From Peduovirus P22H4, in the sequence record NC_049385.1: a stretch of 31,342 bases of DNA. One strand, given 5' to 3'. The translations under genes and the position numbers were made by a program. This document shows positions 11,884 through 31,342 of the stretch, piece after piece. A model generated the notes under the pieces. The model searched no databases. It was not told the origin of the DNA and saw only the letters and a list, made by a program, of their open reading frames with translations. How positions within the stretch are numbered: position 1 is the stretch's first letter; each line of letters begins with the position of its first letter.

Positions 11884-14130
11884 ATGAGCACAAAATTCAG
11901 AACCGTTATCACCACTGCCGGTGCAGCAAAGCTGGCAGCGGCAACCGCGCCGGGAGGGCGGAAGGTCAACATTACCACGATGGCCGTCGGGGATGGCGGT
12001 GGTAAATTGCCTGTCCCGGATGCCGGACAGACCGGGCTTATCCACGAAGTCTGGCGACATGCGCTGAACAAAATCAGCCAGGACAAACGAAACAGTAATT
12101 ATATTATCGCAGAGCTGGTTATTCCGCCGGAGGTGGGCGGTTTCTGGATGCGTGAGCTTGGCCTGTACGATGATGCGGGAACGTTAATTGCCGTGGCGAA
12201 CATGGCCGAAAGTTATAAGCCTGCCCTTGCCGAAGGCTCAGGGCGTTCGCAGACCTGCCGTATGGTCATCATCGTCAGCAGTGTGGCCTCAGTGGAGCTG
12301 ACCATTGACACCACAACGGTGATGGCAACGCAGGATTATGTTGATGACAAAATTGCAGAACATGAACAGTCACGACGTCACCCGGACGCCTCGCTGACCG
12401 CCAAAGGTTTTACTCAGTTAAGCAGTGCGACCAACAGCACGTCTGAAACACTCGCCGCAACACCAAAAGCGGTAAAAGCAGCATATGACCTTGCTAACGG
12501 AAAATATACCGCTCAGGACGCCAGCACGGGGCGAAAAGGTCTTGTCCAGCTCAGTAGTGCCACCAACAGCACGTCTGAAACGCTCGCCGCAACACCAAAA
12601 GCGGTAAAAGCAGCATATGACCTTGCTAACGGGAAATACACTGCACAGGATGCCACCACCGCGCGAAAAGGCCTTGTTCAGCTCAGTAGTGCCACCAACA
12701 GCGATTCTGAAACGCTGGCCGCAACGCCAAAGGCGGTTAAGACAGCGTATGACCTTGCTAACGGGAAATACACTGCACAGGATGCCACCACAGCGCGAAA
12801 AGGTCTTGTCCAGCTAAGTAGCGCCACCAACAGTGATTCTGAAACGCTGGCCGCAACACCAAAAGCGGTGAAGTCTGCCAATGACAATGCTGAAAAACGT
12901 CTTCAGAAAGATCAGAACGGTGCGGATATTCCTGATAAAGAACGCTTCCTGAGTAACATTAATGTTTACAGCAAAGGTGAAGTGGATAAGAAAAAGGGAA
13001 TGCGAAAGTATTCGTTTGCAGCCCCTGCAAATGTCGTTGCCGGGAAGTGGTATCCCGTTATCTTTCGCCGTGCTGCCAGCCTTTCAGGAGAAATGGCATC
13101 CCGCGTCGTTATTTCCACTGGTTGTTATAACGGCGATTATGTAATGAATAACTGCGAGTTTAATGGCATGGTTATGCCCGGAGGATGGACTGATCGTGGT
13201 TCATATGCGGCAGGTTATTTCTGGACGTATCAGACCAATGAGCGTTCAATCCATTCCATTGTTACAAGCCTGAAAGATGATGATGTATGTAGTGTTTTTT
13301 ATGTTGAAGCCAGAGCTTTCCCTGTGCAAATTCTTGCAGAGGAAGGGCTAACGGTTATTGTTCCGACAGAGGATTATGTCGTCGGTCAAACGACATATAA
13401 GTGGGGGGCAACTAATCCCGCTACAGAAAGCACGAACGCACAGGCTATTCTGGATTTTAAAAATGGGCGCGGTTATTACTGCTCACATCCATTTATTTCT
13501 AACCTTTCAGGAAATGCTGCAACAGCCTCAAAACTCGAAACACCGAGGAAAATAGCAGGTGTTGCCTTTGATGGTTCTGGAGATATTACCCTTAATGCCA
13601 GAAATGTCGGTGCATTTGCACTTCGGCAGACAGGTAATACGGTTAATGGTGATACAGCCGTTGGATGGAATTGGGACAGTGGCGCATACAACGCTCTGAT
13701 TGGGGGAGCATCTGCATTAATTCTTCACTTTAATATAAATGCTGGTAGCTGCCCGGCTGTACAGTTTCGTGTGAATTATAAAAATGGCGGTATATCTTAC
13801 AGGTCAGCCCGTGATGGTTATGGTTTTGAATCTGGCTGGTCTGATTTCTATACCACAACACGAAAACCCTCAGCGGGAGATGTTGGTGCATACACCAAAG
13901 CTGAGTCAGATTCACGTTATGTGAGAGACATGCGGCTGGGCGGTGCATCTACATATAAACCAGCAAATAATGGTACTGCATGGACGCATCAGGCTCCGTC
14001 AGGTTGCGTATATACCGGCATTATTGTTCAGGATACCGGCTCAAACTCTGCCGATAACATTGGTGGCGTATATTACAGACCAGTGCAGAAATACATTAAC
14101 GGGACATGGTATAACGTGGCGCAGGTATAA
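11884..14130 (+). CDS. H: Tail fibre protein (P2 gpH-like) with expanded internal repeats and a divergent distal half
   Basis: 748-aa ORF, longer than the ~669 aa I recall for P2 H; N-terminal region is GC-rich and P2-like; contains 44-aa tandem repeats; the C-terminal half is lower in GC. Confidence 0.85.
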   Translation: MSTKFRTVITTAGAAKLAAATAPGGRKVNITTMAVGDGGGKLPVPDAGQTGLIHEVWRHALNKISQDKRNSNYIIAELVIPPEVGGFWMRELGLYDDAGTLIAVANMAESYKPALAEGSGRSQTCRMVIIVSSVASVELTIDTTTVMATQDYVDDKIAEHEQSRRHPDASLTAKGFTQLSSATNSTSETLAATPKAVKAAYDLANGKYTAQDASTGRKGLVQLSSATNSTSETLAATPKAVKAAYDLANGKYTAQDATTARKGLVQLSSATNSDSETLAATPKAVKTAYDLANGKYTAQDATTARKGLVQLSSATNSDSETLAATPKAVKSANDNAEKRLQKDQNGADIPDKERFLSNINVYSKGEVDKKKGMRKYSFAAPANVVAGKWYPVIFRRAASLSGEMASRVVISTGCYNGDYVMNNCEFNGMVMPGGWTDRGSYAAGYFWTYQTNERSIHSIVTSLKDDDVCSVFYVEARAFPVQILAEEGLTVIVPTEDYVVGQTTYKWGATNPATESTNAQAILDFKNGRGYYCSHPFISNLSGNAATASKLETPRKIAGVAFDGSGDITLNARNVGAFALRQTGNTVNGDTAVGWNWDSGAYNALIGGASALILHFNINAGSCPAVQFRVNYKNGGISYRSARDGYGFESGWSDFYTTTRKPSAGDVGAYTKAESDSRYVRDMRLGGASTYKPANNGTAWTHQAPSGCVYTGIIVQDTGSNSADNIGGVYYRPVQKYINGTWYNVAQV
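12406..12873 (+). repeat. Coding tandem repeat, 132-bp period, about 3.5 copies (44-aa tail-fibre repeat)
   Basis: Three full near-identical 132-bp units begin at 12406, 12538 and 12670, with a partial fourth from 12802; each encodes G(L/F)xQLSSATNS(T/D)SETLAATPKAVK(A/T)AYDLANGKYTAQDA. Confidence 0.9.
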
Positions 14131-14133
14131 TTT

Positions 14134-14661
14134 ATGCAGCATTTAAAAAATATTACGGCGGGTAATCCAAAAACGGTTGAACAATATCAATTGACAAAGG
14201 ACTTTGATGTTGTCTGGTTTTTTTCAGAAGATGGTAAGAACTGGTACGAACAACAAAAGTATTTTGCTGATGACACGATAAAAATAGCGTACGACAAAGA
14301 TAATATTATCCGCTATGTGGAAAAGGATGTGACAGCTATCAGACCGGATGGATTAAGTGTGGTTGAAGTGGCGGATATTACTGCTAATCGGCGGGCGGAC
14401 ATTTCAGGGAACTGGATGTTTAAGGACGGCAAAGTGATTAAACGCATTTATACGGAAGAGGAATTACAGCAGCAGGCAGAAATTCGGAAAGCCAGACTTC
14501 TTGCAGATGCTGAATCCGTGATTTTGCCGCTGGAGCGCGCGGTCAGACTGAACATGGCAACAGATGAGGAGCGTAGCCGACTGGATGCATGGGAGCGTTA
14601 CAGCGTTCTGGTCAGTCGTGTGGATCCTGCAAATCCTGAATGGCCGGAAATGCCGCAATAA
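14134..14661 (+). CDS. G: Tail fibre assembly chaperone (P2 gpG-like)
   Basis: 175-aa ORF immediately after H; AT-rich like the distal part of H. Confidence 0.8.
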
Positions 14662-14853
14662 GTTGTATGAGCTCTGGTGTGAGCTTACATATCTATGGCA
14701 CAGAGTAAAGACTAATCTGACAGTCCGCTCTGTGCCAAAAACGGGCAGAGTGAATGGCTAAGTCTAGCTCATTAGAAATGTTCGCTTCATGAAAATGGCT
14801 GCAGCAAGGATCTATCTCACTGCGGCCTCTTTACAATAACGAAATTTTGCGAG

Positions 14854-15609
14854 CTATTCCTTGGCCTCTTTATTTTTCTCGCCATCGCCAATGTAAAGAA
14901 GATAATCGTTTAAGGATATCCTTCCGGAGGGGCCGGTCCATGTTATCCATCCGTTCTCACGAAGATTAAATAATGCTTCCATGAACTCATTATCGTTAAA
15001 AGAATGATCCTCTGAGAACAGAATGTTCATTTTTCTCAATAGTTCTTCCACTTTAATCTTTTCATATCGCCTTATCAGACTTAGTGCTTTACGACGCATT
15101 AAGATTGTAGGTACTGCTTGTGAACGAATGGTTTTTTGTATTCCACTATCAAGAACTTTCTTGATCTTACTCTCTAACTCTTTGATTTTAGTTTCATTAT
15201 CTCCATTGGACTTAAGCTTTTCATCAACGATGCAAATAATTTCCTGACTAATGCTGTTCTTGAGGTTGTTTATTTTTTCTTCATTGTTGAGAATCTCATC
15301 AGAGCTTCCTGCATGGGGTTTTTTCCATATGTGCTGACGCATATCCGTTACCGTATCTCTCATCATAGAGAATGTATCTGAATATAACTTGTCAAATATT
15401 TTTTCCAGTCGTTCGACACTTGCCTGGATGTCTTTTGCTGCTTTAGTTGTCTCTTTAGAAGCCTCATTCGACATTTTATAAAAAACAAAAGAAAGCCAAA
15501 TAGCCCCAATGGCGAGTACTAATGAGGCTATTGTGGCAATAAAACCTATTATTGTTATTGCTGTATCTAATGTACCTGCTGCATCTGTGACTACTGTTTC
15601 TGCTGCCAT
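14854..15609 (-). CDS. Hypothetical membrane-anchored protein; AT-rich cargo gene at the P2 Z/fun hotspot, candidate exclusion or defence function
   Basis: 251-aa ORF on the opposite strand to the flanking late operons; ATG start with an AGGA-type RBS; one predicted N-terminal TM helix (ITIIGFIATIASLVLAIGAIWLSFVFY) then a Lys/Glu-rich helical region; about 33% GC on the line I counted. Confidence 0.7.
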   Translation of the reverse strand: MAAETVVTDAAGTLDTAITIIGFIATIASLVLAIGAIWLSFVFYKMSNEASKETTKAAKDIQASVERLEKIFDKLYSDTFSMMRDTVTDMRQHIWKKPHAGSSDEILNNEEKINNLKNSISQEIICIVDEKLKSNGDNETKIKELESKIKKVLDSGIQKTIRSQAVPTILMRRKALSLIRRYEKIKVEELLRKMNILFSEDHSFNDNEFMEALFNLRENGWITWTGPSGRISLNDYLLYIGDGEKNKEAKE

Positions 15610-16119
15610 ATATCCTCAATATTTAACCATACAGGGTAGCGTGTTTTAACCGCGGGGAAGTCGGGGTGGTGACACCCTAGCCTTACCCCGATTCCAGAGT
15701 ATTTATTTATCATACCATTGAAACTATTTAATTTTATCGAAAATTTTGTCAGAGCGTGACTGAAAAGTCTTCAGCACGTCAAGCATATCGTCGCCGTTCA
15801 ATTAACACTGAGCCTTTTCTTAGAGGGGTGGGCTGCGCAGTTGCGAGGTTATGCCCCAGTTCCTAGTTCCTCACTACATTCTAATTAAGCCGGCCAACTA
15901 AATGTCCGCTTTTCGCTCAAAGCAGACTGTCAGATTTGATAGCGTTTGGGCTATGTAAATTGTCAGTTGGAAAATGAGTGAGTACAAATCAGGATAGGCT
16001 GGCGGATTACCCGCCTTTTCTTTGTCTGTTGTTTCATCCCCTGACCAGCCAGGTCAAATAGCGTCTCATGCTCTGCACAACAGAAAATAGTTGCACCCAT
16101 TAACCACGGAGTTAAACGG
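15610..16119. promoter_or_regulatory. Long intergenic region holding the presumed cargo-gene promoter and the late promoter for FI (P2 PF equivalent)
   Basis: 510 bp with no ORF of 60 aa or more in the track; divergent layout between the minus-strand cargo gene and FI. Confidence 0.4.
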
Positions 16120-17310
16120 ATGAGTGACTATCATCACGGCGTGCAGGTGCTGGAGATTAACGACGGCACCCGCGTCATTTCCACTGTATCCACTGCCATT
16201 GTCGGCATGGTCTGCACGGCCAGCGATGCGGATGCGGAAACCTTCCCCCTCAATAAACCTGTGCTGATTACCAATGTGCAGAGCGCAATTGCAAAGGCCG
16301 GTAAAAAAGGCACGCTGGCGGCGTCGCTGCAGGCCATCGCTGACCAGTCAAAACCGGTCACCGTTGTCGTGCGTGTGGAAGACGGCACCGGCGACGACGA
16401 AGAAACGAAACTCGCGCAGACCGTTTCCAATATCATCGGCACCACCGACGAAAACGGTCAGTACACCGGACTGAAAGCCCTGATGGGCGCTGAGTCGGTT
16501 ACCGGCGTTAAACCGCGTATTCTCGGCGTGCCGGGACTGGACACCAAAGAGGTCGCCGTCGCACTGGCATCGGTATGCCAGGAACTGAATGCATTCGGGT
16601 ATATCAGCGCATGGGGCTGTAAGACCATTTCCGAGGCAAAAGCCTACCGTCAGAATTTCAGCCAGCGTGAGCTGATGGTCATCTGGCCGGATTTCCTCGC
16701 ATGGGATACGGTTACCAGTACCACCGCCACCGCGTATGCCACCGCCCGTGCGCTGGGTCTGCGCGCTAAAATCGACCAGGAGCAGGGCTGGCATAAAACG
16801 CTGTCCAACGTCGGGGTGAACGGTGTTACCGGCATCAGTGCATCCGTCTTCTGGGATTTGCAGAAGCCGGGCACTGATGCTGACCTGCTTAACGAGTCAG
16901 GCGTCACTACGCTGATTCGCCGCGACGGTTTCCGCTTCTGGGGTAACCGTACCTGCTCTGATGATCCGCTGTTCCTCTTTGAAAGTTACACCCGCACCGC
17001 GCAGGTACTGGCCGACACGATGGCTGAGGCGCACATGTGGGCTATTGATAAGCCCATCACCGCAACGCTGATTCGCGACATCATTGACGGCATCAATGCC
17101 AAATTCCGTGAACTGAAAAACAACGGTTATATCGTGGATGGTACATGCTGGTTCAGCGAAGAGTCCAACGATGCGGAAACCCTCAAGGCCGGCAAACTGT
17201 ATATCGACTACGACTATACCCCGGTGCCTCCTCTTGAAAATCTGACCCTGCGCCAGCGTATTACCGATAAATACCTGGCAAATCTGGTCACCTCGGTTAA
17301 CAGCAATTAA
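16120..17310 (+). CDS. FI: Tail sheath protein (P2 gpFI)
   Basis: 396-aa ORF, P2 FI length; followed by FII. Confidence 0.9.
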   Translation: MSDYHHGVQVLEINDGTRVISTVSTAIVGMVCTASDADAETFPLNKPVLITNVQSAIAKAGKKGTLAASLQAIADQSKPVTVVVRVEDGTGDDEETKLAQTVSNIIGTTDENGQYTGLKALMGAESVTGVKPRILGVPGLDTKEVAVALASVCQELNAFGYISAWGCKTISEAKAYRQNFSQRELMVIWPDFLAWDTVTSTTATAYATARALGLRAKIDQEQGWHKTLSNVGVNGVTGISASVFWDLQKPGTDADLLNESGVTTLIRRDGFRFWGNRTCSDDPLFLFESYTRTAQVLADTMAEAHMWAIDKPITATLIRDIIDGINAKFRELKNNGYIVDGTCWFSEESNDAETLKAGKLYIDYDYTPVPPLENLTLRQRITDKYLANLVTSVNSN

Positions 17311-26513: not shown

Positions 26514-28788
26514 AGCCTCCGGGCGTTTTGTCCCTCCGTCAGCATTTGCCGCAGGCACCGGTAAGGCGTTTACCGGTGCTTATGCATGGAACGCGCCACG
26601 CGAGGCCGTCGGGCGCGAAAGACCCCTTACACGTGACGAGATGCGTCAGGTGCAAGGTGTTTTATCCACGATTAACCGCCTGCCTTACTTTTTGCGCTCG
26701 CTGTTTACTTCACGCTATGACTACATCCGGCGCAATAAAAGCCCGGTGCACGGGTTTTATTTTCTCACATCCACTTTTCAGCGTCGTTTATGGCCGCGCA
26801 TTGAGCGTGTGAATCAGCGCCATGAAATGAACACCGACGCGTCGTTGCTGTTTCTGGCAGAGCGTGACCATTATGCGCGTCTGCCGGGGATGAATGACAA
26901 GGAGCTGAAAAAGTTTGCCGCCCGTATCTCATCGCAGCTTTTCATGATGTATGAGGAACTCTGCGATGCCTGGGTGGATGCGCATGGCGAGAAAGAATCG
27001 CTGTTTACGGATGAGGCACAGGCTCACCTGTATGGTCATGTTGCTGGCGCTGCACGAGCTTTCAATATTTCCCCTCTCTACTGGAAAAAATACCGTAAAG
27101 GGCAGATGACCACGAGGCAGGCATATTCTGCCATTGCCCGTCTGTTTAACGATGAGTGGTGGATTAGTCAGCTTAAAGGCCAGCGTATGCGCTGGCATGA
27201 GGCGTTACTGATTGCTGTCGGGGAGGTCAATAAAGACCGTTCTCCTTATGCCAGTAAACATGCCATTCGTGATGTGCGTGCACGCCGCCAGGCAAATCTG
27301 GAATTTCTTAAATCGTGTGATCTCGAAAACAGGGAAACCGGCGAGCGCATCGACCTTATCAGTAAGGTGATGGGCAGTATTTCTAATCCTGAAATTCGCC
27401 GGATGGAGCTGATGAACACCATTGCCGGTATTGAGCGTTACGCCGCAGCAGAGGGTGATGTGGGGATGTTTATCACGCTGACCGCGCCGTCAAAGTATCA
27501 CCCGACACGTCAGGTTGGAAAAGGCGAAAGTAAAACCGTCCAGCTAAATCACGGCTGGAACGATGAGGCATTTAATCCAAAGGATGCGCAGCGTTATCTC
27601 TGCCGTATCTGGAGCCTGATGCGCACGGCATTCAAGGATAATGATTTACAGGTCTACGGTTTGCGTGTCGTCGAGCCACACCACGACGGAACGCCGCACT
27701 GGCATATGATGCTTTTTTGTAATCCGCGCCAGCGTAACCAGATTATCGAAATCATGCGTCGCTATGCGCTCAAAGAGGATGGCGACGAAAGAGGAGCCGC
27801 GCGAAACCGTTTTCAGGCAAAACACCTTAATCGGGGCGGTGCTGCGGGGTATATCGCGAAATACATCTCAAAAAACATCGACGGCTATGCACTGGATGGT
27901 CAGCTCGATAATGATACCGGTAGGCCGCTGAAAGACACAGCTGCTGCTGTTACCGCATGGGCGTCAACGTGGCGCATTCCGCAATTTAAAACGGTTGGTC
28001 TGCCGACAATGGGGGCTTACCGTGAACTACGCAAATTGCCTCGCGGCGTCAGCATTGCTGATGAGTTTGACGAGCGCGTCGAGGCTGCACGCGCCGCCGC
28101 AGACAGTGGTGATTTTGCGTTGTATATCAGCGCGCAGGGTGGGGCAAATGTTCCGCGCGATTGTCAGACTGTCAGAGTCGCCCGTAGCCCGTCGGATGAC
28201 GTTAACGAGTACGAGGAAGAGGTCGAGAGAGTGGTCGGCATTTACGCGCCGCATCTCGGCGCGCGTCATATTCATATCACCAGAACGACGGACTGGCGCA
28301 TTGTGCCGAAAGTGCCGGTCGTTGAGCCTTTGACGTTAAAAAGCGGCATCGCCGCGCCTCGGAGTCCTGTCAATAACTGTGGAAAGCTCACCGGTGGTGA
28401 TACTTCGTCACCGGCTCCCACGCCTTCTGAACACGCCGCAGCAGTGCTTAATCTGGTTGATGATGGTGTTATCGAATGGAATGACCCGGAGGTCGTGAGG
28501 GCGCTCAGGGGTGCATTAAAACACGACCTGAGAACGCCAAACCGTCAACAAAGAAACGGAAGCCCGTTAAAACCACATGAAATTGCACCATCGGCCAGAC
28601 TGACCCGGTCGGAAAGAATGCAAATTACCCGTATCCGCGTTGACCTTGCTCAGAACGGTATCAGGCCGCAGCGATGGGAGCTTGAGGCGCAGGCGCGTGG
28701 CGCGACCGTAAATTATGACGGGAAAAAATTCACGTATCCGGTCGCTGATGAGTGGCCGGGATTCTCAACAGTAATGGAGTGGAAATGA
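26503..28788 (+). CDS. A: Rolling-circle replication initiator (P2 gpA, HUH endonuclease)
   Basis: ATG at 26503 gives 761 aa, the P2 A length; HUH motif HWH at codons 399-401 (nt 27697-27705); tyrosine pair YIAKY with Y at codons 450 and 454 (nt 27850-27864). Confidence 0.9.
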   Translation: MAVKASGRFVPPSAFAAGTGKAFTGAYAWNAPREAVGRERPLTRDEMRQVQGVLSTINRLPYFLRSLFTSRYDYIRRNKSPVHGFYFLTSTFQRRLWPRIERVNQRHEMNTDASLLFLAERDHYARLPGMNDKELKKFAARISSQLFMMYEELCDAWVDAHGEKESLFTDEAQAHLYGHVAGAARAFNISPLYWKKYRKGQMTTRQAYSAIARLFNDEWWISQLKGQRMRWHEALLIAVGEVNKDRSPYASKHAIRDVRARRQANLEFLKSCDLENRETGERIDLISKVMGSISNPEIRRMELMNTIAGIERYAAAEGDVGMFITLTAPSKYHPTRQVGKGESKTVQLNHGWNDEAFNPKDAQRYLCRIWSLMRTAFKDNDLQVYGLRVVEPHHDGTPHWHMMLFCNPRQRNQIIEIMRRYALKEDGDERGAARNRFQAKHLNRGGAAGYIAKYISKNIDGYALDGQLDNDTGRPLKDTAAAVTAWASTWRIPQFKTVGLPTMGAYRELRKLPRGVSIADEFDERVEAARAAADSGDFALYISAQGGANVPRDCQTVRVARSPSDDVNEYEEEVERVVGIYAPHLGARHIHITRTTDWRIVPKVPVVEPLTLKSGIAAPRSPVNNCGKLTGGDTSSPAPTPSEHAAAVLNLVDDGVIEWNDPEVVRALRGALKHDLRTPNRQQRNGSPLKPHEIAPSARLTRSERMQITRIRVDLAQNGIRPQRWELEAQARGATVNYDGKKFTYPVADEWPGFSTVMEWK

Positions 28789-29240
28789 TGGCAAAAATTC
28801 ACGAGGTAAAGCTGCACGCAAAATATTTTGACCTTGTGCTGGAAGGAAAGAAACGCGCAGAGTTTCGGAAAAATGACCGTAATTATGAGCGCGGGGACAC
28901 GTTGATTTTGCATGAATGGGGGCAGGGTGTGTTTACGGGGCGAAAGGTTGAAGCCCGGATAACAGATGTTACTGACCTGTCAGACTGGCTGGAAGACTAT
29001 GTCTTGCTAAGTATTGAGCTGCTTAATACAGGCGCATATGAGATTGTGAACTGGAAAGAACTTAGTGAGCGTGGCCTGGTATTCAGAATTAATCATGAAA
29101 TTATGCATCAGCTCGGCCTTGCTGTTATGTATGAACCAGAGACGGGGATGTCTGGCGGGGCAATGGTCGCCACGGATGGAGCATGGAACTATTCAGATGA
29201 ACAGATGGAGCGTGCACAGCAAAACGGGTGGCTTGGATAA
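28785..29240 (+). CDS. Hypothetical protein (P2 orf91-like) with an ASCH/DUF3850-like N-terminal domain
   Basis: ATG at 28785 overlapping the A stop, 151 aa; N-terminus IHEVKLHAKYFDLVLEGKKRAEFRKNDRNYERGDTLILHEW resembles the DUF3850/ASCH pattern as I recall it. Confidence 0.6.
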   Translation: MMAKIHEVKLHAKYFDLVLEGKKRAEFRKNDRNYERGDTLILHEWGQGVFTGRKVEARITDVTDLSDWLEDYVLLSIELLNTGAYEIVNWKELSERGLVFRINHEIMHQLGLAVMYEPETGMSGGAMVATDGAWNYSDEQMERAQQNGWLG

Positions 29241-29446: not shown

Positions 29447-29669
29447 AGAACACCGCCAGTCGTGAAACTTGTTTTCAGGGCTGGCGGGGTTGAACAACGA
29501 GCGAAGCGAGACGTTAGTTGACAGACATATTTTTACTACGTTGGTGCTGGTTTTTGACGGTTGAAAGGAGTTAGGTTGGAGAGCTAACAACTTACAAATA
29601 TTCAAAAGTAAGCATCCTGTTGCTAACATGAGGTTGATTTTTTATGTGGATGATGCAAAAAGGATAGCT

Positions 29670-30401
29670 ATGGATACTATAATCGCTTTTCTATCACTCG
29701 CTTTTTTCGTTGCTTTCTTCATCGGGTTAATCAAGCCATCACTGGTGCGAATGCCAAACCGCAAACGTGCAAGTGCGGTTTATCTCGGAGGAGGTTTTGT
29801 ATTGAGCATAATTGGTTCAATACTCTATCCAACAGAAAAAAGCCAGCCAGTTGCTAAAACTGAAACATCAACCGTTGCAGAACACAAAGTCCAAAAAACA
29901 TTCGAATATGGTGAAAAAACACTCAAGGAATATCGGAACGAGTCAAAGAAAACACGACACGATATTGTGAATAGTTACATTGATTTTAAGGAAGTTCCAG
30001 CCACCGCGTCAGATGCGTTTTATGCCTGCATGAGTGAGTATACATTTACCAAAGATGATGAGTTGAAACTCGGTGATGTTCTTGGGTGGTGCTTTAATGA
30101 TTATGAAAATGACCCGAGTTCACTAAACAATAAAATCAATCTTGATACATTTCAGAGTAATTTTAGTGGTTGGGATGGTTCTTATCGTCCATTGGAAAAA
30201 CTAATTAAAGATAATATGAACGATGATTCATCTTATAAACATGTGTCAACGGTATATCATCTGGTTTTGAATAAAGACCCGCATGCCATTGTGAAAACCA
30301 CGTTTCGCGGAACTAATGCTTATGGCGGAGTGGTGAAACAGACGATTGCTGCGCGTGTCAATGTAGAAACAGGTGAGGTTGTATCAATTATAAGTGAGTG
30401 A
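29670..30401 (+). CDS. Hypothetical membrane protein (two predicted N-terminal TM helices); cargo gene 1 at the P2 tin/old hotspot
   Basis: ATG at 29670 preceded by AAAAAGGA; 243 aa; TM segments IIAFLSLAFFVAFFIGLI and AVYLGGGFVLSIIGSILY, then a soluble domain; AT-rich; no Walker A motif. Confidence 0.65.
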   Translation: MDTIIAFLSLAFFVAFFIGLIKPSLVRMPNRKRASAVYLGGGFVLSIIGSILYPTEKSQPVAKTETSTVAEHKVQKTFEYGEKTLKEYRNESKKTRHDIVNSYIDFKEVPATASDAFYACMSEYTFTKDDELKLGDVLGWCFNDYENDPSSLNNKINLDTFQSNFSGWDGSYRPLEKLIKDNMNDDSSYKHVSTVYHLVLNKDPHAIVKTTFRGTNAYGGVVKQTIAARVNVETGEVVSIISE

Positions 30402-30499
30402 ACTGTGCCAGAATGATAAAGATGCCAGCATTTATGCTGGCAATCATAAAAATAGTGACTAGCAAAAATTGGTGTCTGGTTTTAATGTGAGATTAGAAA

Positions 30500-31198
30500 A
30501 TGAATAGATGTAAATATATTTTAAGAGGTTTGTTGCTGAAGTTTAAAAGTATAAGTTCTATGCATTTGTTATTTGTTTTAATAACGGCTTGTCTATTCTT
30601 TTTTATAGGGTGTTACGTGGGTTATAGTGGTATTGGTTTGAATGGTGACACTAAATACCAATTAATTACAATACCTTTTTTGACCATGTTGGGTACTTGG
30701 GTTTCTGGGGTGGGAGCATTTTCTGCTGTTGCGACATCATTGTTGTTGGCACACCGTTCGCTAAAGGAAAATTCAGAAGAAATTGCTATTCGATATAGCA
30801 TGGTGTTAATGCCATCAATGTACTTACCTAGCACTACAGATACAGCAATATCAATAACCATAACAAACAAAAGAAAAGTAAGGAGTAATATTCAATCGGT
30901 TGTTTTGCAATTTTCTAATAATAAAGCAATGAATATATTGGTAAACCCCGGGACGCTTATCTCTGGCAAGTTACCGCATGTTTTAGAAGACTATGGTGAT
31001 ATATTGACGCTTATAATTCCAGAGAGCATTATCGCATCAGTAACTGATGAGGGGTTCGTAAAAGAATGTCAGGGGAATACTCTTGGAGAAGGTAGTGTCG
31101 TAGTTCACACAACGACAAAAACATTTGTAAAAAAATTAACATTACCTCAAATTAAGCCATTTAATGATAAATTTAAGTCTGTATTGACGAAACCGTAA
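30500..31198 (+). CDS. Hypothetical membrane protein (two predicted TM helices); cargo gene 2 at the P2 tin/old hotspot
   Basis: 232-aa ORF; TM segments LLFVLITACLFFFIGCYVGY and LITIPFLTMLGTWVSGVGAFSAVATSLLL, then a Ser/Thr/Val-rich domain; about 25% GC on the line counted; start uncertain (ATG 30500 has a weak RBS, alternative ATG at 30560). Confidence 0.6.
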   Translation: MNRCKYILRGLLLKFKSISSMHLLFVLITACLFFFIGCYVGYSGIGLNGDTKYQLITIPFLTMLGTWVSGVGAFSAVATSLLLAHRSLKENSEEIAIRYSMVLMPSMYLPSTTDTAISITITNKRKVRSNIQSVVLQFSNNKAMNILVNPGTLISGKLPHVLEDYGDILTLIIPESIIASVTDEGFVKECQGNTLGEGSVVVHTTTKTFVKKLTLPQIKPFNDKFKSVLTKP

Positions 31199-31323
31199 GA
31201 GGTGCGTTGCGTTGCATTTTTTTGCATCTTCAAGGATTAATTTCTGCATCTTTATTTTGCCAGTACTGATGTGCTTTTAATGGACTCATGCAACTGCATT
31301 AAAACCGCCCCATGAAGCGGGCG

Positions 31324-31332
31324 GGCGAGGCG
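31324..31332. other. cos: cos site, proximal 9 nt (GGCGAGGCG) of the P2 19-nt cohesive end
   Basis: Last phage bases before the terminal adapter; completes the cos 19-mer with bases 31-40. Confidence 0.75.
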
Positions 31333-31342
31333 CTGTCTCTTA
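31333..31342. other. Sequencing adapter remnant (start of CTGTCTCTTATACACATCT, the reverse-complement Tn5 mosaic end)
   Basis: Terminal CTGTCTCTTA matches the first 10 nt of the Nextera read-through adapter. Confidence 0.75.

Follow-up and report, generated by a model that had tools for sequence, protein, structure and literature searches.

The gene at 14854..15609 on the minus strand of Peduovirus P22H4 (NC_049385.1) is a genuine gene, carried on a cassette that is mobile across phage types and that contains no partner gene, and selection on its product is graded, strongest at the N-terminal end and weakest in the C-terminal domain. From this context and from the predicted architecture of the protein we infer an anti-phage role and a mechanism: with somewhat less than even confidence, we propose that the product is a stand-alone, lysogen-expressed, membrane-tethered sensor/effector directed against incoming phages.

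At this locus, the window (the whole 31,342 nucleotides that were analysed) matches Escherichia phage 9W (OM475431.1) with 100% identity. In this Peduovirus (P2-like phage), the gene is annotated as coding for a hypothetical protein (ULG01000.1). The ORF check of the window returns an ATG-started frame of 251 aa (the coordinates include the stop codon). According to the 9W annotation, it is flanked on the left by the tail fibre assembly gene gpG (14134-14661, +) and on the right by the sheath gene FI (16120-17310, +). An earlier note on this DNA, written from the letters of the sequence, had described a 251-aa opposite-strand gene between the tail-fibre and sheath operons, and the frame, the strand and the flanks are indeed as it said. 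The note had also given the GC content of this cargo as about 33%, against about 50% or more in the backbone; the dip is there but it is milder than claimed, the coding sequence having 37.1% GC (34.5-37.5% in 400-nt windows) and the rest of the window 52.7%. The GC content at third codon positions (GC3) is 0.34, versus 0.67-0.69 for FI and FII. Such a deviant base composition is what is seen in moron or cargo cassettes.

The protein matches PHROG 36054 end to end (1-251 of 251, E = 2.8e-176), a family that carries no functional annotation. When 1.84 billion representative proteins are searched with a profile, 699 homolog clusters are retrieved at E <= 1e-3 and 270 at E <= 1e-30, nearly all of which consist of proteins of 200-260 aa with a common architecture. 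That there are about 700 homolog clusters, and that dN/dS is well below 1 among close relatives, shows that the gene is real and not a chance ORF. With the patterns used, a scan of 185,579 species genomes (one per species) detects a homolog in 36 species, which span the Gamma-, Beta-, Alpha- and Deltaproteobacteria, the Bacteroidota, Ignavibacteriota, Chloroflexota, Acidobacteriota and Actinomycetota, and Methanoregula.

The statement of the earlier note that the protein could be assigned to no known family still holds, PHROG 36054 apart: nothing significant is found in Pfam or in NCBIfam. The search with a defence-system finder that the note had called for does not favour its suggestion of a defence protein, since no model of PADLOC-DB v2.0.0 gives a significant match, the only hit being PDC-M49B at E = 0.42. 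Weak matches to DHC_N1, to the polyomavirus large T antigen and to apolipoproteins reflect coiled-coil composition and were discarded. When 50,697 phage records, P2 included, are searched by tblastn, only phage 9W is retrieved, and a literature search on the accessions, the PHROG identifier, the conserved motif and phage 9W found no paper that mentions them. The locus and its swappable Z/fun cargo are already known, while the protein family was not found described and is in none of the defence catalogues that were searched.

The assignment of the gene to the Z/fun accessory hotspot, which had been proposed from the sequence and which corresponds to a hotspot documented in the literature, is borne out by the comparison of genomes. 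Of 5426 complete E. coli genomes, 1013 have the P2 flanks and only ten have the focal cargo, which in seven of the ten is in the Z/fun slot. The edges of the cargo are marked by a 34-nt inverted repeat whose left (14714..14747) and right (15903..15936) arms are 82% complementary; its counterpart in the Z-region record of P2-EC67 bears the annotation "left/right inverted repeat". Backbone homology with P2 and P2-EC67 stops at 14740-14744, and homology with P2 restarts at 15904-15905, so that the swapped cargo extends from about 14745 to 15903. The backbone is thus interrupted at a fixed site, with the presence/absence polymorphism that defines moron or hotspot cargo. The right arm includes a small hairpin of the GTCCGC...GCGGAC type, which is also found in a copy of the cassette carried by a lambdoid prophage. 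As a matter of fact, this lambdoid copy (locus L061, 8941-10183) keeps both boundary hairpins, which are the inner parts of the inverted repeat (regions 14696-14747 and 15903-15936), without the outer, P2-specific AATCTGACAGTC arms; this suggests that the cassette is recombined or captured with the hairpins as its boundaries. The search for the hairpin motif elsewhere in the window was uninformative.

In P2, the same slot is occupied by Fun(Z), the lysogenic conversion gene responsible for T5 exclusion and sensitivity to FUdR. The two loci resemble each other: both genes are non-essential cargo, lie between gpG and FI with an orientation opposed to that of the late operons, and have the same conserved backbone repeats at their edges. 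The earlier note had considered that the gene might be Fun/Z itself, and the shared locus and the opposite-strand orientation in P2 speak for this idea. However, direct comparison refutes it at the sequence level: the P2 protein (NP_046777.1) has 528 aa instead of 251, the two are unrelated with no detectable similarity, and the best BLASTP alignment has E = 8.7 over 12 residues. The probability that the gene codes for Fun(Z), or for a protein homologous to Fun(Z) but diverged, is practically nil, and the shared position characterises the locus rather than the protein family.

The cassette seems to bring its own expression signals. The Shine-Dalgarno motif GAGGA (15613..15617, -), 4 nt 5' of the ATG, is kept in all aligned copies. 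Consensus matches and conservation designate 15705..15752 (-) as the candidate promoter of the gene: it contains an extended -10-like element, TGGTATGAT (15709-15717, -), which is kept even in the most diverged aligned copy, and also a weaker CTGACA-18 nt-AATAGT match. A palindrome, GGTGTCACC (15668..15676, -), located within the 5' leader of about 95 nt and likewise kept in the most diverged aligned copy, is a possible operator. We note that TGGTATGAT and GGTGTCACC are both kept in the upstream region (about 290 nt) of copies whose identity is otherwise no more than about 60-80%, which hints at a regulated expression of the gene. On the other side, 27 nt past the stop codon, a GC-rich hairpin followed by AUUUUCAU (about 14789..14827, -; z = -2.4) is a candidate intrinsic terminator, which a simple terminator scan had overlooked. 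We also considered that the long upstream region may contain a known RNA element, and rejected this idea: no Rfam family matches the upstream or the terminator region, and the leader is not significantly structured. With a predicted promoter, a Shine-Dalgarno motif and a predicted terminator, the gene would be an autonomous unit laid out like a classical moron, its transcription being opposed to that of the late operons. This orientation makes expression in the lysogen probable.

The same cassette is found in unrelated elements, as is expected of moron cargo. In three pig isolates it lies in a lambdoid prophage (99.3% identity by megablast, 97.6% by blastn over positions 14696-15928 of the window), between replisome-organiser/DUF977 genes and hokD and on the opposite strand. 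It is the only part shared with a viral contig that has a different lambdoid backbone, and the copies in lambdoid prophages are 96-99% identical at the nucleotide level. Genes of a lambdoid early region are also present at the locus of the Serratia oryzae homolog. A Hafnia-type P2-like prophage (IMG/VR UViG_2772190620_000003; locus L057, 8001-8753) carries a homolog with 84% amino acid identity upstream of the gpV/W/J baseplate genes, and its gpG-FI slot is empty (144 bp), so the cassette uses two different slots in P2-like phages. In a prophage of Serratia marcescens, a diverged homolog is inserted between the terminase subunit genes, in a siphovirus-type context. Last, a homolog is found at the replication/regulatory edge of five independent filamentous (inovirus) prophages, from Alcaligenes, Pectobacterium, Citrobacter freundii, E. 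coli and Providencia, a sign that accessory genes pass between tailed phages and filamentous ones. These inovirus homologs (L008, L012, L014, L066 and L068) often adjoin small HTH or antitoxin-like genes. One diverged homolog adjoins hipBA, and one is found in a region of a Klebsiella genome that is rich in transposons and toxin-antitoxin (TA) genes.

The context on which a defence reading is based is therefore stronger than it was in the earlier note, since the cassette recurs in four unrelated types of prophage. The hotspots of P2, including the one located among the tail genes, are rich in defence systems according to the published record, and two of ten hypothetical inovirus accessory genes that were tested exclude unrelated phages.

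No partner gene is conserved. When the four neighbours on each side of the gene are clustered, no family is common to more than three of about 40 loci, and the few families that are shared, by at most three loci, are secretin and ABC-type proteins. It follows that the gene acts alone. This bears on the hypothesis that the gene is selfish and codes for a membrane toxin or an addiction module by which its carrier element is stabilised. A single small membrane protein borne by mobile elements could be just that, all the more so as TA genes are often found next to it (hokD, HipBA, Xre/ParS-type, HI1420-type antitoxin, TacAT, MazE/PIN). However, neither a conserved antitoxin partner, in about 40 loci, nor an antisense RNA, in the Rfam search, was detected; the gene persists, intact and solitary, in many chromosomes; and a simple toxin has no need of a winged-helix tip that resembles a sensor. 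We consider an addiction module to be highly improbable.

The foreign character of the gene is general. In 35 of 37 loci its AT content exceeds that of the flanks (mean difference of 11 points), and the AT-rich island is confined to the gene. We examined whether the low GC content is a by-product of a composition rich in Lys, Ile and Asn, and the GC3 control rejects this explanation: the GC3 of the homolog is the lowest of its locus in 18 of the 37 loci, so that AT-richness is not just a matter of amino acid composition.

The contexts of the distant homologs are different. The two neighbours on either side of these genes (146 proteins) are mostly housekeeping proteins, such as transporters and metabolic enzymes; only two are integrases, a handful match defence models, and no clear association with defence islands is seen around these genes. 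Hidden inovirus genes, which were searched for in distant loci using phmmer with Zot, secretin, Rep and G5P seeds, appear only in loci already recognised as such. Guilt by association is thus confined to the Enterobacterales and Alcaligenes, and it is strong only where prophages are recognisable. In two species of Psychrobacter (L029 and L032), we observed that the homolog lies in the same syntenic chromosomal neighbourhood, which suggests stable vertical inheritance within the genus, and that it bears a foreign GC3 signature (z = -2.8 and -8.1).

These housekeeping contexts and the Psychrobacter synteny, together with the absence of a match in PADLOC or in an annotated PHROG, count against a defence role. 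They suit an accessory membrane factor that has nothing to do with phage resistance and is of another benefit to the host or the prophage: it might tether a regulator or a nucleic acid to the membrane, modulate a universal membrane machine through its invariant juxtamembrane helix, or adjust the induction of the prophage or the stress physiology of the host. It is also the case that hotspot cargo is sometimes non-defensive, as shown by partition systems and the cytolethal distending toxin. On the contrary, the sparse and patchy distribution of the gene (36 matches in 185,579 species genomes, with the patterns used), its foreign appearance nearly everywhere and its repeated capture, on the opposite strand of accessory slots, by at least four unrelated types of prophage fit a gene involved in conflicts better than such a factor. 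We come back to this alternative below, because the pattern of selection bears on it too.

The protein is predicted to be anchored in the inner membrane by its N-terminus, as the earlier note had proposed from a single N-terminal transmembrane (TM) helix. The only hydrophobic segment, aa 17-44 (15478..15561, -), has Kyte-Doolittle values up to 2.4, and its assignment as a TM helix is supported by hydropathy, by the distribution of charges, by invariant columns and by the helix seen in the model. The N-tail (aa 1-16) contains no Lys or Arg and has a net charge of -3, and four Lys are found at most 16 residues past the TM helix. This distribution indicates an N-out/C-in topology: one segment of at least 19 residues with the positive charge on its C-terminal side is what is expected of single-pass inner-membrane proteins so oriented. 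The N-tail is thus predicted to be periplasmic and nearly all of the protein cytoplasmic. The TM helix has a conserved face of small residues (A25, S29, A33, G35/A36, S40), and W38 and F43 are invariant.

It is followed by a juxtamembrane helix, aa 45-96 (15322..15477, -), which is the most conserved part of the family, with the motif RLExxFDKLYSDTFSMMxDTVxDMRxHxW, and whose hydrophobic residues have a heptad-like spacing. Then comes a variable helical linker, aa 97-165 (15115..15321, -), made of two Lys/Glu-rich helices (10% K, 9% E), and a cytoplasmic winged-helix (WH) domain, aa 166-240 (14890..15114, -). AlphaFold models based on the family alignment predict one long helix from aa 7 to 95, which includes the TM helix and its extension, then the linker helices (aa 108-132 and 139-163) with low to moderate confidence, and last the C-terminal domain (166-240, pLDDT of about 90); the Lys/Glu-rich helical middle and the compact C-terminal domain announced from the sequence are recognisable in them. 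The topology and the fold of the protein are predictions with good support.

Conservation decreases along this architecture. Across phyla, the mean pairwise identity is 56% in the TM helix and 66% in the juxtamembrane helix, and it is 23% in the middle helices and 22% in the WH domain. Among close relatives, dN/dS is 0.01-0.07 in the N-terminal part (aa 2-96), about 0.1-0.15 in the middle helices and 0.26-0.63 in the WH domain. The Serratia and Hafnia variants of the WH domain are 60-71% identical. In a 50-sequence alignment, 27 columns are invariant, including those of the juxtamembrane motif and S29, A36, W38 and F43; R67, E69, D73, Y76, D78, D89, R91, H93 and W95 are the invariant juxtamembrane residues of interest. 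This conservation is not the result of recent transfer, because the fourfold-degenerate sites in identical codons are saturated (27.8% third-base identity). A slowly evolving membrane module joined to a fast-evolving tip is the pattern that is expected of an effector coupled to a sensor engaged in an arms race. It may also be that the faster evolution of the WH domain, whose dN/dS is below 1, reflects a weaker constraint.

The very strong and long-lasting purifying selection on the N-terminal module, which extends to surface residues, suggests a conserved cellular partner: the invariant polar residues of the juxtamembrane helix that face outwards are explained as readily by binding to a universal partner in the cell as by a pore, if not more so. 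This polar surface and the housekeeping contexts of the distant homologs are the best arguments for a non-defence role exerted through a universal membrane-proximal partner, which we regard as a serious alternative even if it is on the unlikely side.

The C-terminal domain, and it alone, has the topology of the winged-helix superfamily (H1-S1-H2-H3-S2-W-S3, a three-helix core with a beta-hairpin wing), its secondary structure elements being in the order H-beta-H-H-beta-beta. It resembles the WHB domain of cullin/Cdc53, the C-terminal WH domain of RPA32, Stn1, the MCM WHD and the wHTH domains of PadR and MarR, but only at the level of the fold, with 9-17% identity, so that no function can be transferred from these proteins, none of which has its WH domain fused to an N-terminal TM helix and a stalk. 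It is not recognised as a DNA-binding wHTH of the PadR, MarR or similar types, as no Pfam HTH family matches significantly and there is no basic recognition helix: the third helix, EFMEALFNLREN, is acidic and hydrophobic, and the net charge of the domain is zero. Since this helix is unlike a classical DNA-recognition helix, the ligand of the domain may be a protein. In two members of the family (P0084 and P0088) the entire core is extended at its C-terminus by an OST-HTH/LOTUS domain (E about 1e-10), a hint that ligands are bound at the cytoplasmic tip. There are also copies reduced to the N-terminal module (66-173 aa) or split in two ORFs (L020, 7980-8651; L049, 7977-8231; P0267, P0270 and P0274), which could be decaying genes or short functional variants. 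When the first 100 aa were used as a query to look for N-terminal modules paired with other C-terminal domains, only 17 short or truncated proteins were found, which is uninformative.

These features of the tip and of the anchor help to evaluate a different anti-phage mechanism, in which the cell is left unharmed: the tethered WH domain would capture, at the inner membrane, either the DNA that comes in or a phage protein that is ejected or made early, and block genome entry or establishment, and the N-terminal module would only anchor and oligomerise the protein. The evidence from prophage and hotspot contexts is the same as for a sensor/effector, the predicted location at the cytoplasmic face of the inner membrane is the point of arrival of injected genomes, and inovirus accessory genes can confer exclusion. 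Known prophage exclusion proteins are small inner-membrane proteins. However, a mere anchor does not require polar residues that are nearly invariant across phyla, a domain with zero net charge and an acidic/hydrophobic third helix is atypical of a DNA binder, and no similar protein other than that of 9W is present in the 50,697 phage records. Such a non-abortive exclusion or sequestration seems distinctly unlikely to us, and an abortive effect on the membrane somewhat likelier than a pure block of entry or sequestration.

We consider an anti-phage (or anti-mobile-element) sensor/effector the most likely function, because the gene has been captured repeatedly by unrelated temperate phages in accessory positions, has putative expression signals of its own and combines a conserved module with a faster-evolving tip. 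The mechanism could be as follows. A one-gene "moron" cassette of about 1.16 kb, with its candidate promoter, strong ribosome-binding site and candidate terminator, moves horizontally among unrelated temperate phages and into chromosomes. Its product would be a single-pass inner-membrane protein with about 16 residues in the periplasm. The TM helix, with its small-residue packing face, and the near-invariant heptad helix that prolongs it would probably form a parallel homo-oligomer, and the variable helical stalk would place the fast-evolving WH domain in the cytoplasm, just below the membrane. At the membrane, this winged-helix tip would recognise some protein or nucleic-acid complex that belongs to a phage, or to another mobile element, on its way into the cell. 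The response would then come from the conserved membrane module, which would most probably perturb the membrane (abortive infection) or, failing that, keep the genome from entering.

In its proposed role, the protein is similar in outline to T4 Imm, P22 SieA and HK97 gp15, as a small accessory inner-membrane protein encoded by a single gene. These phage- or prophage-borne inner-membrane proteins protect the cell from other phages; none of them is known to have a cytoplasmic winged-helix domain. The focal protein has no sequence similarity to anything in the 50,697 phage records beyond phage 9W, nor to any annotated PHROG. The proposed combination of a TM effector and a cytoplasmic ligand-sensing domain is also reminiscent of the TM effectors of CBASS, Pycsar and type III CRISPR systems, and of RexB-type abortive systems. 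Effectors of these kinds need an enzyme as partner or a second messenger, whereas here there is no conserved partner gene and no PADLOC match, and the proposed sensing domain is a winged helix.

A bolder version of this hypothesis would see in the family a new class of single-protein immune devices, present from Proteobacteria to Actinomycetota and methanogenic archaea, in which a TM and juxtamembrane effector would self-assemble to disrupt or gate the membrane, a diversifying WH domain would sense phages directly, and the cassette would be traded among P2-like, lambdoid, siphovirus-type and filamentous prophages. We consider this version rather unlikely.

Several observations concern other parts of the window. 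A second AT-rich cargo block (29600-31342, GC 0.34-0.39) lies downstream of a gpA-like ORF, at the position of the classical old/tin hotspot. It contains two ORFs, 29628-30401 (+) and 30500-31198 (+), of 257 and 232 aa, for which there is no significant match in Pfam (one sub-threshold match to EpuA, E = 0.003) and none in PADLOC; kinship between them and the focal protein was looked for and not found. They are preceded by an ORF (28752-29240, +) that codes for an ASCH/DUF3850 plus DUF7415 protein of 162 aa. Next to the focal locus, gpH (11884-14130) contains 3.4 copies of a 132-bp tandem repeat (12424-12869, 90% matches), which gives a repeated 44-aa motif, and the GC content of its C-terminal half and of gpG (0.44-0.47) is below that of the backbone, which is consistent with a swapping of the receptor-binding module beside the hotspot. 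A 45-aa ORF (15963-16100, -), annotated as a hypothetical protein in 9W, is inside a conserved backbone segment that contains, in P2, the Ogr-type activator site and the transcript start of the F operon; this ORF is probably not a gene.

Phage hotspots carry mostly unannotated cargo, and no systems are easier to test or to reuse than those made of a single gene. The cassette described here stands out in that it has been captured by at least four unrelated types of prophage, and in that its family, whose membrane module is unusually invariant, extends across bacterial phyla into archaea. The association with filamentous prophages ties the traffic of accessory genes of tailed phages to inoviruses. 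If the protein is defensive, it would have a compact membrane-tethered sensor-effector architecture that has no relative among known systems, and the family would offer a natural collection of WH variants with which to map the targets of such sensors. If the protein has another role, its invariant juxtamembrane helix suggests contact with some universal component of the cell close to the membrane.
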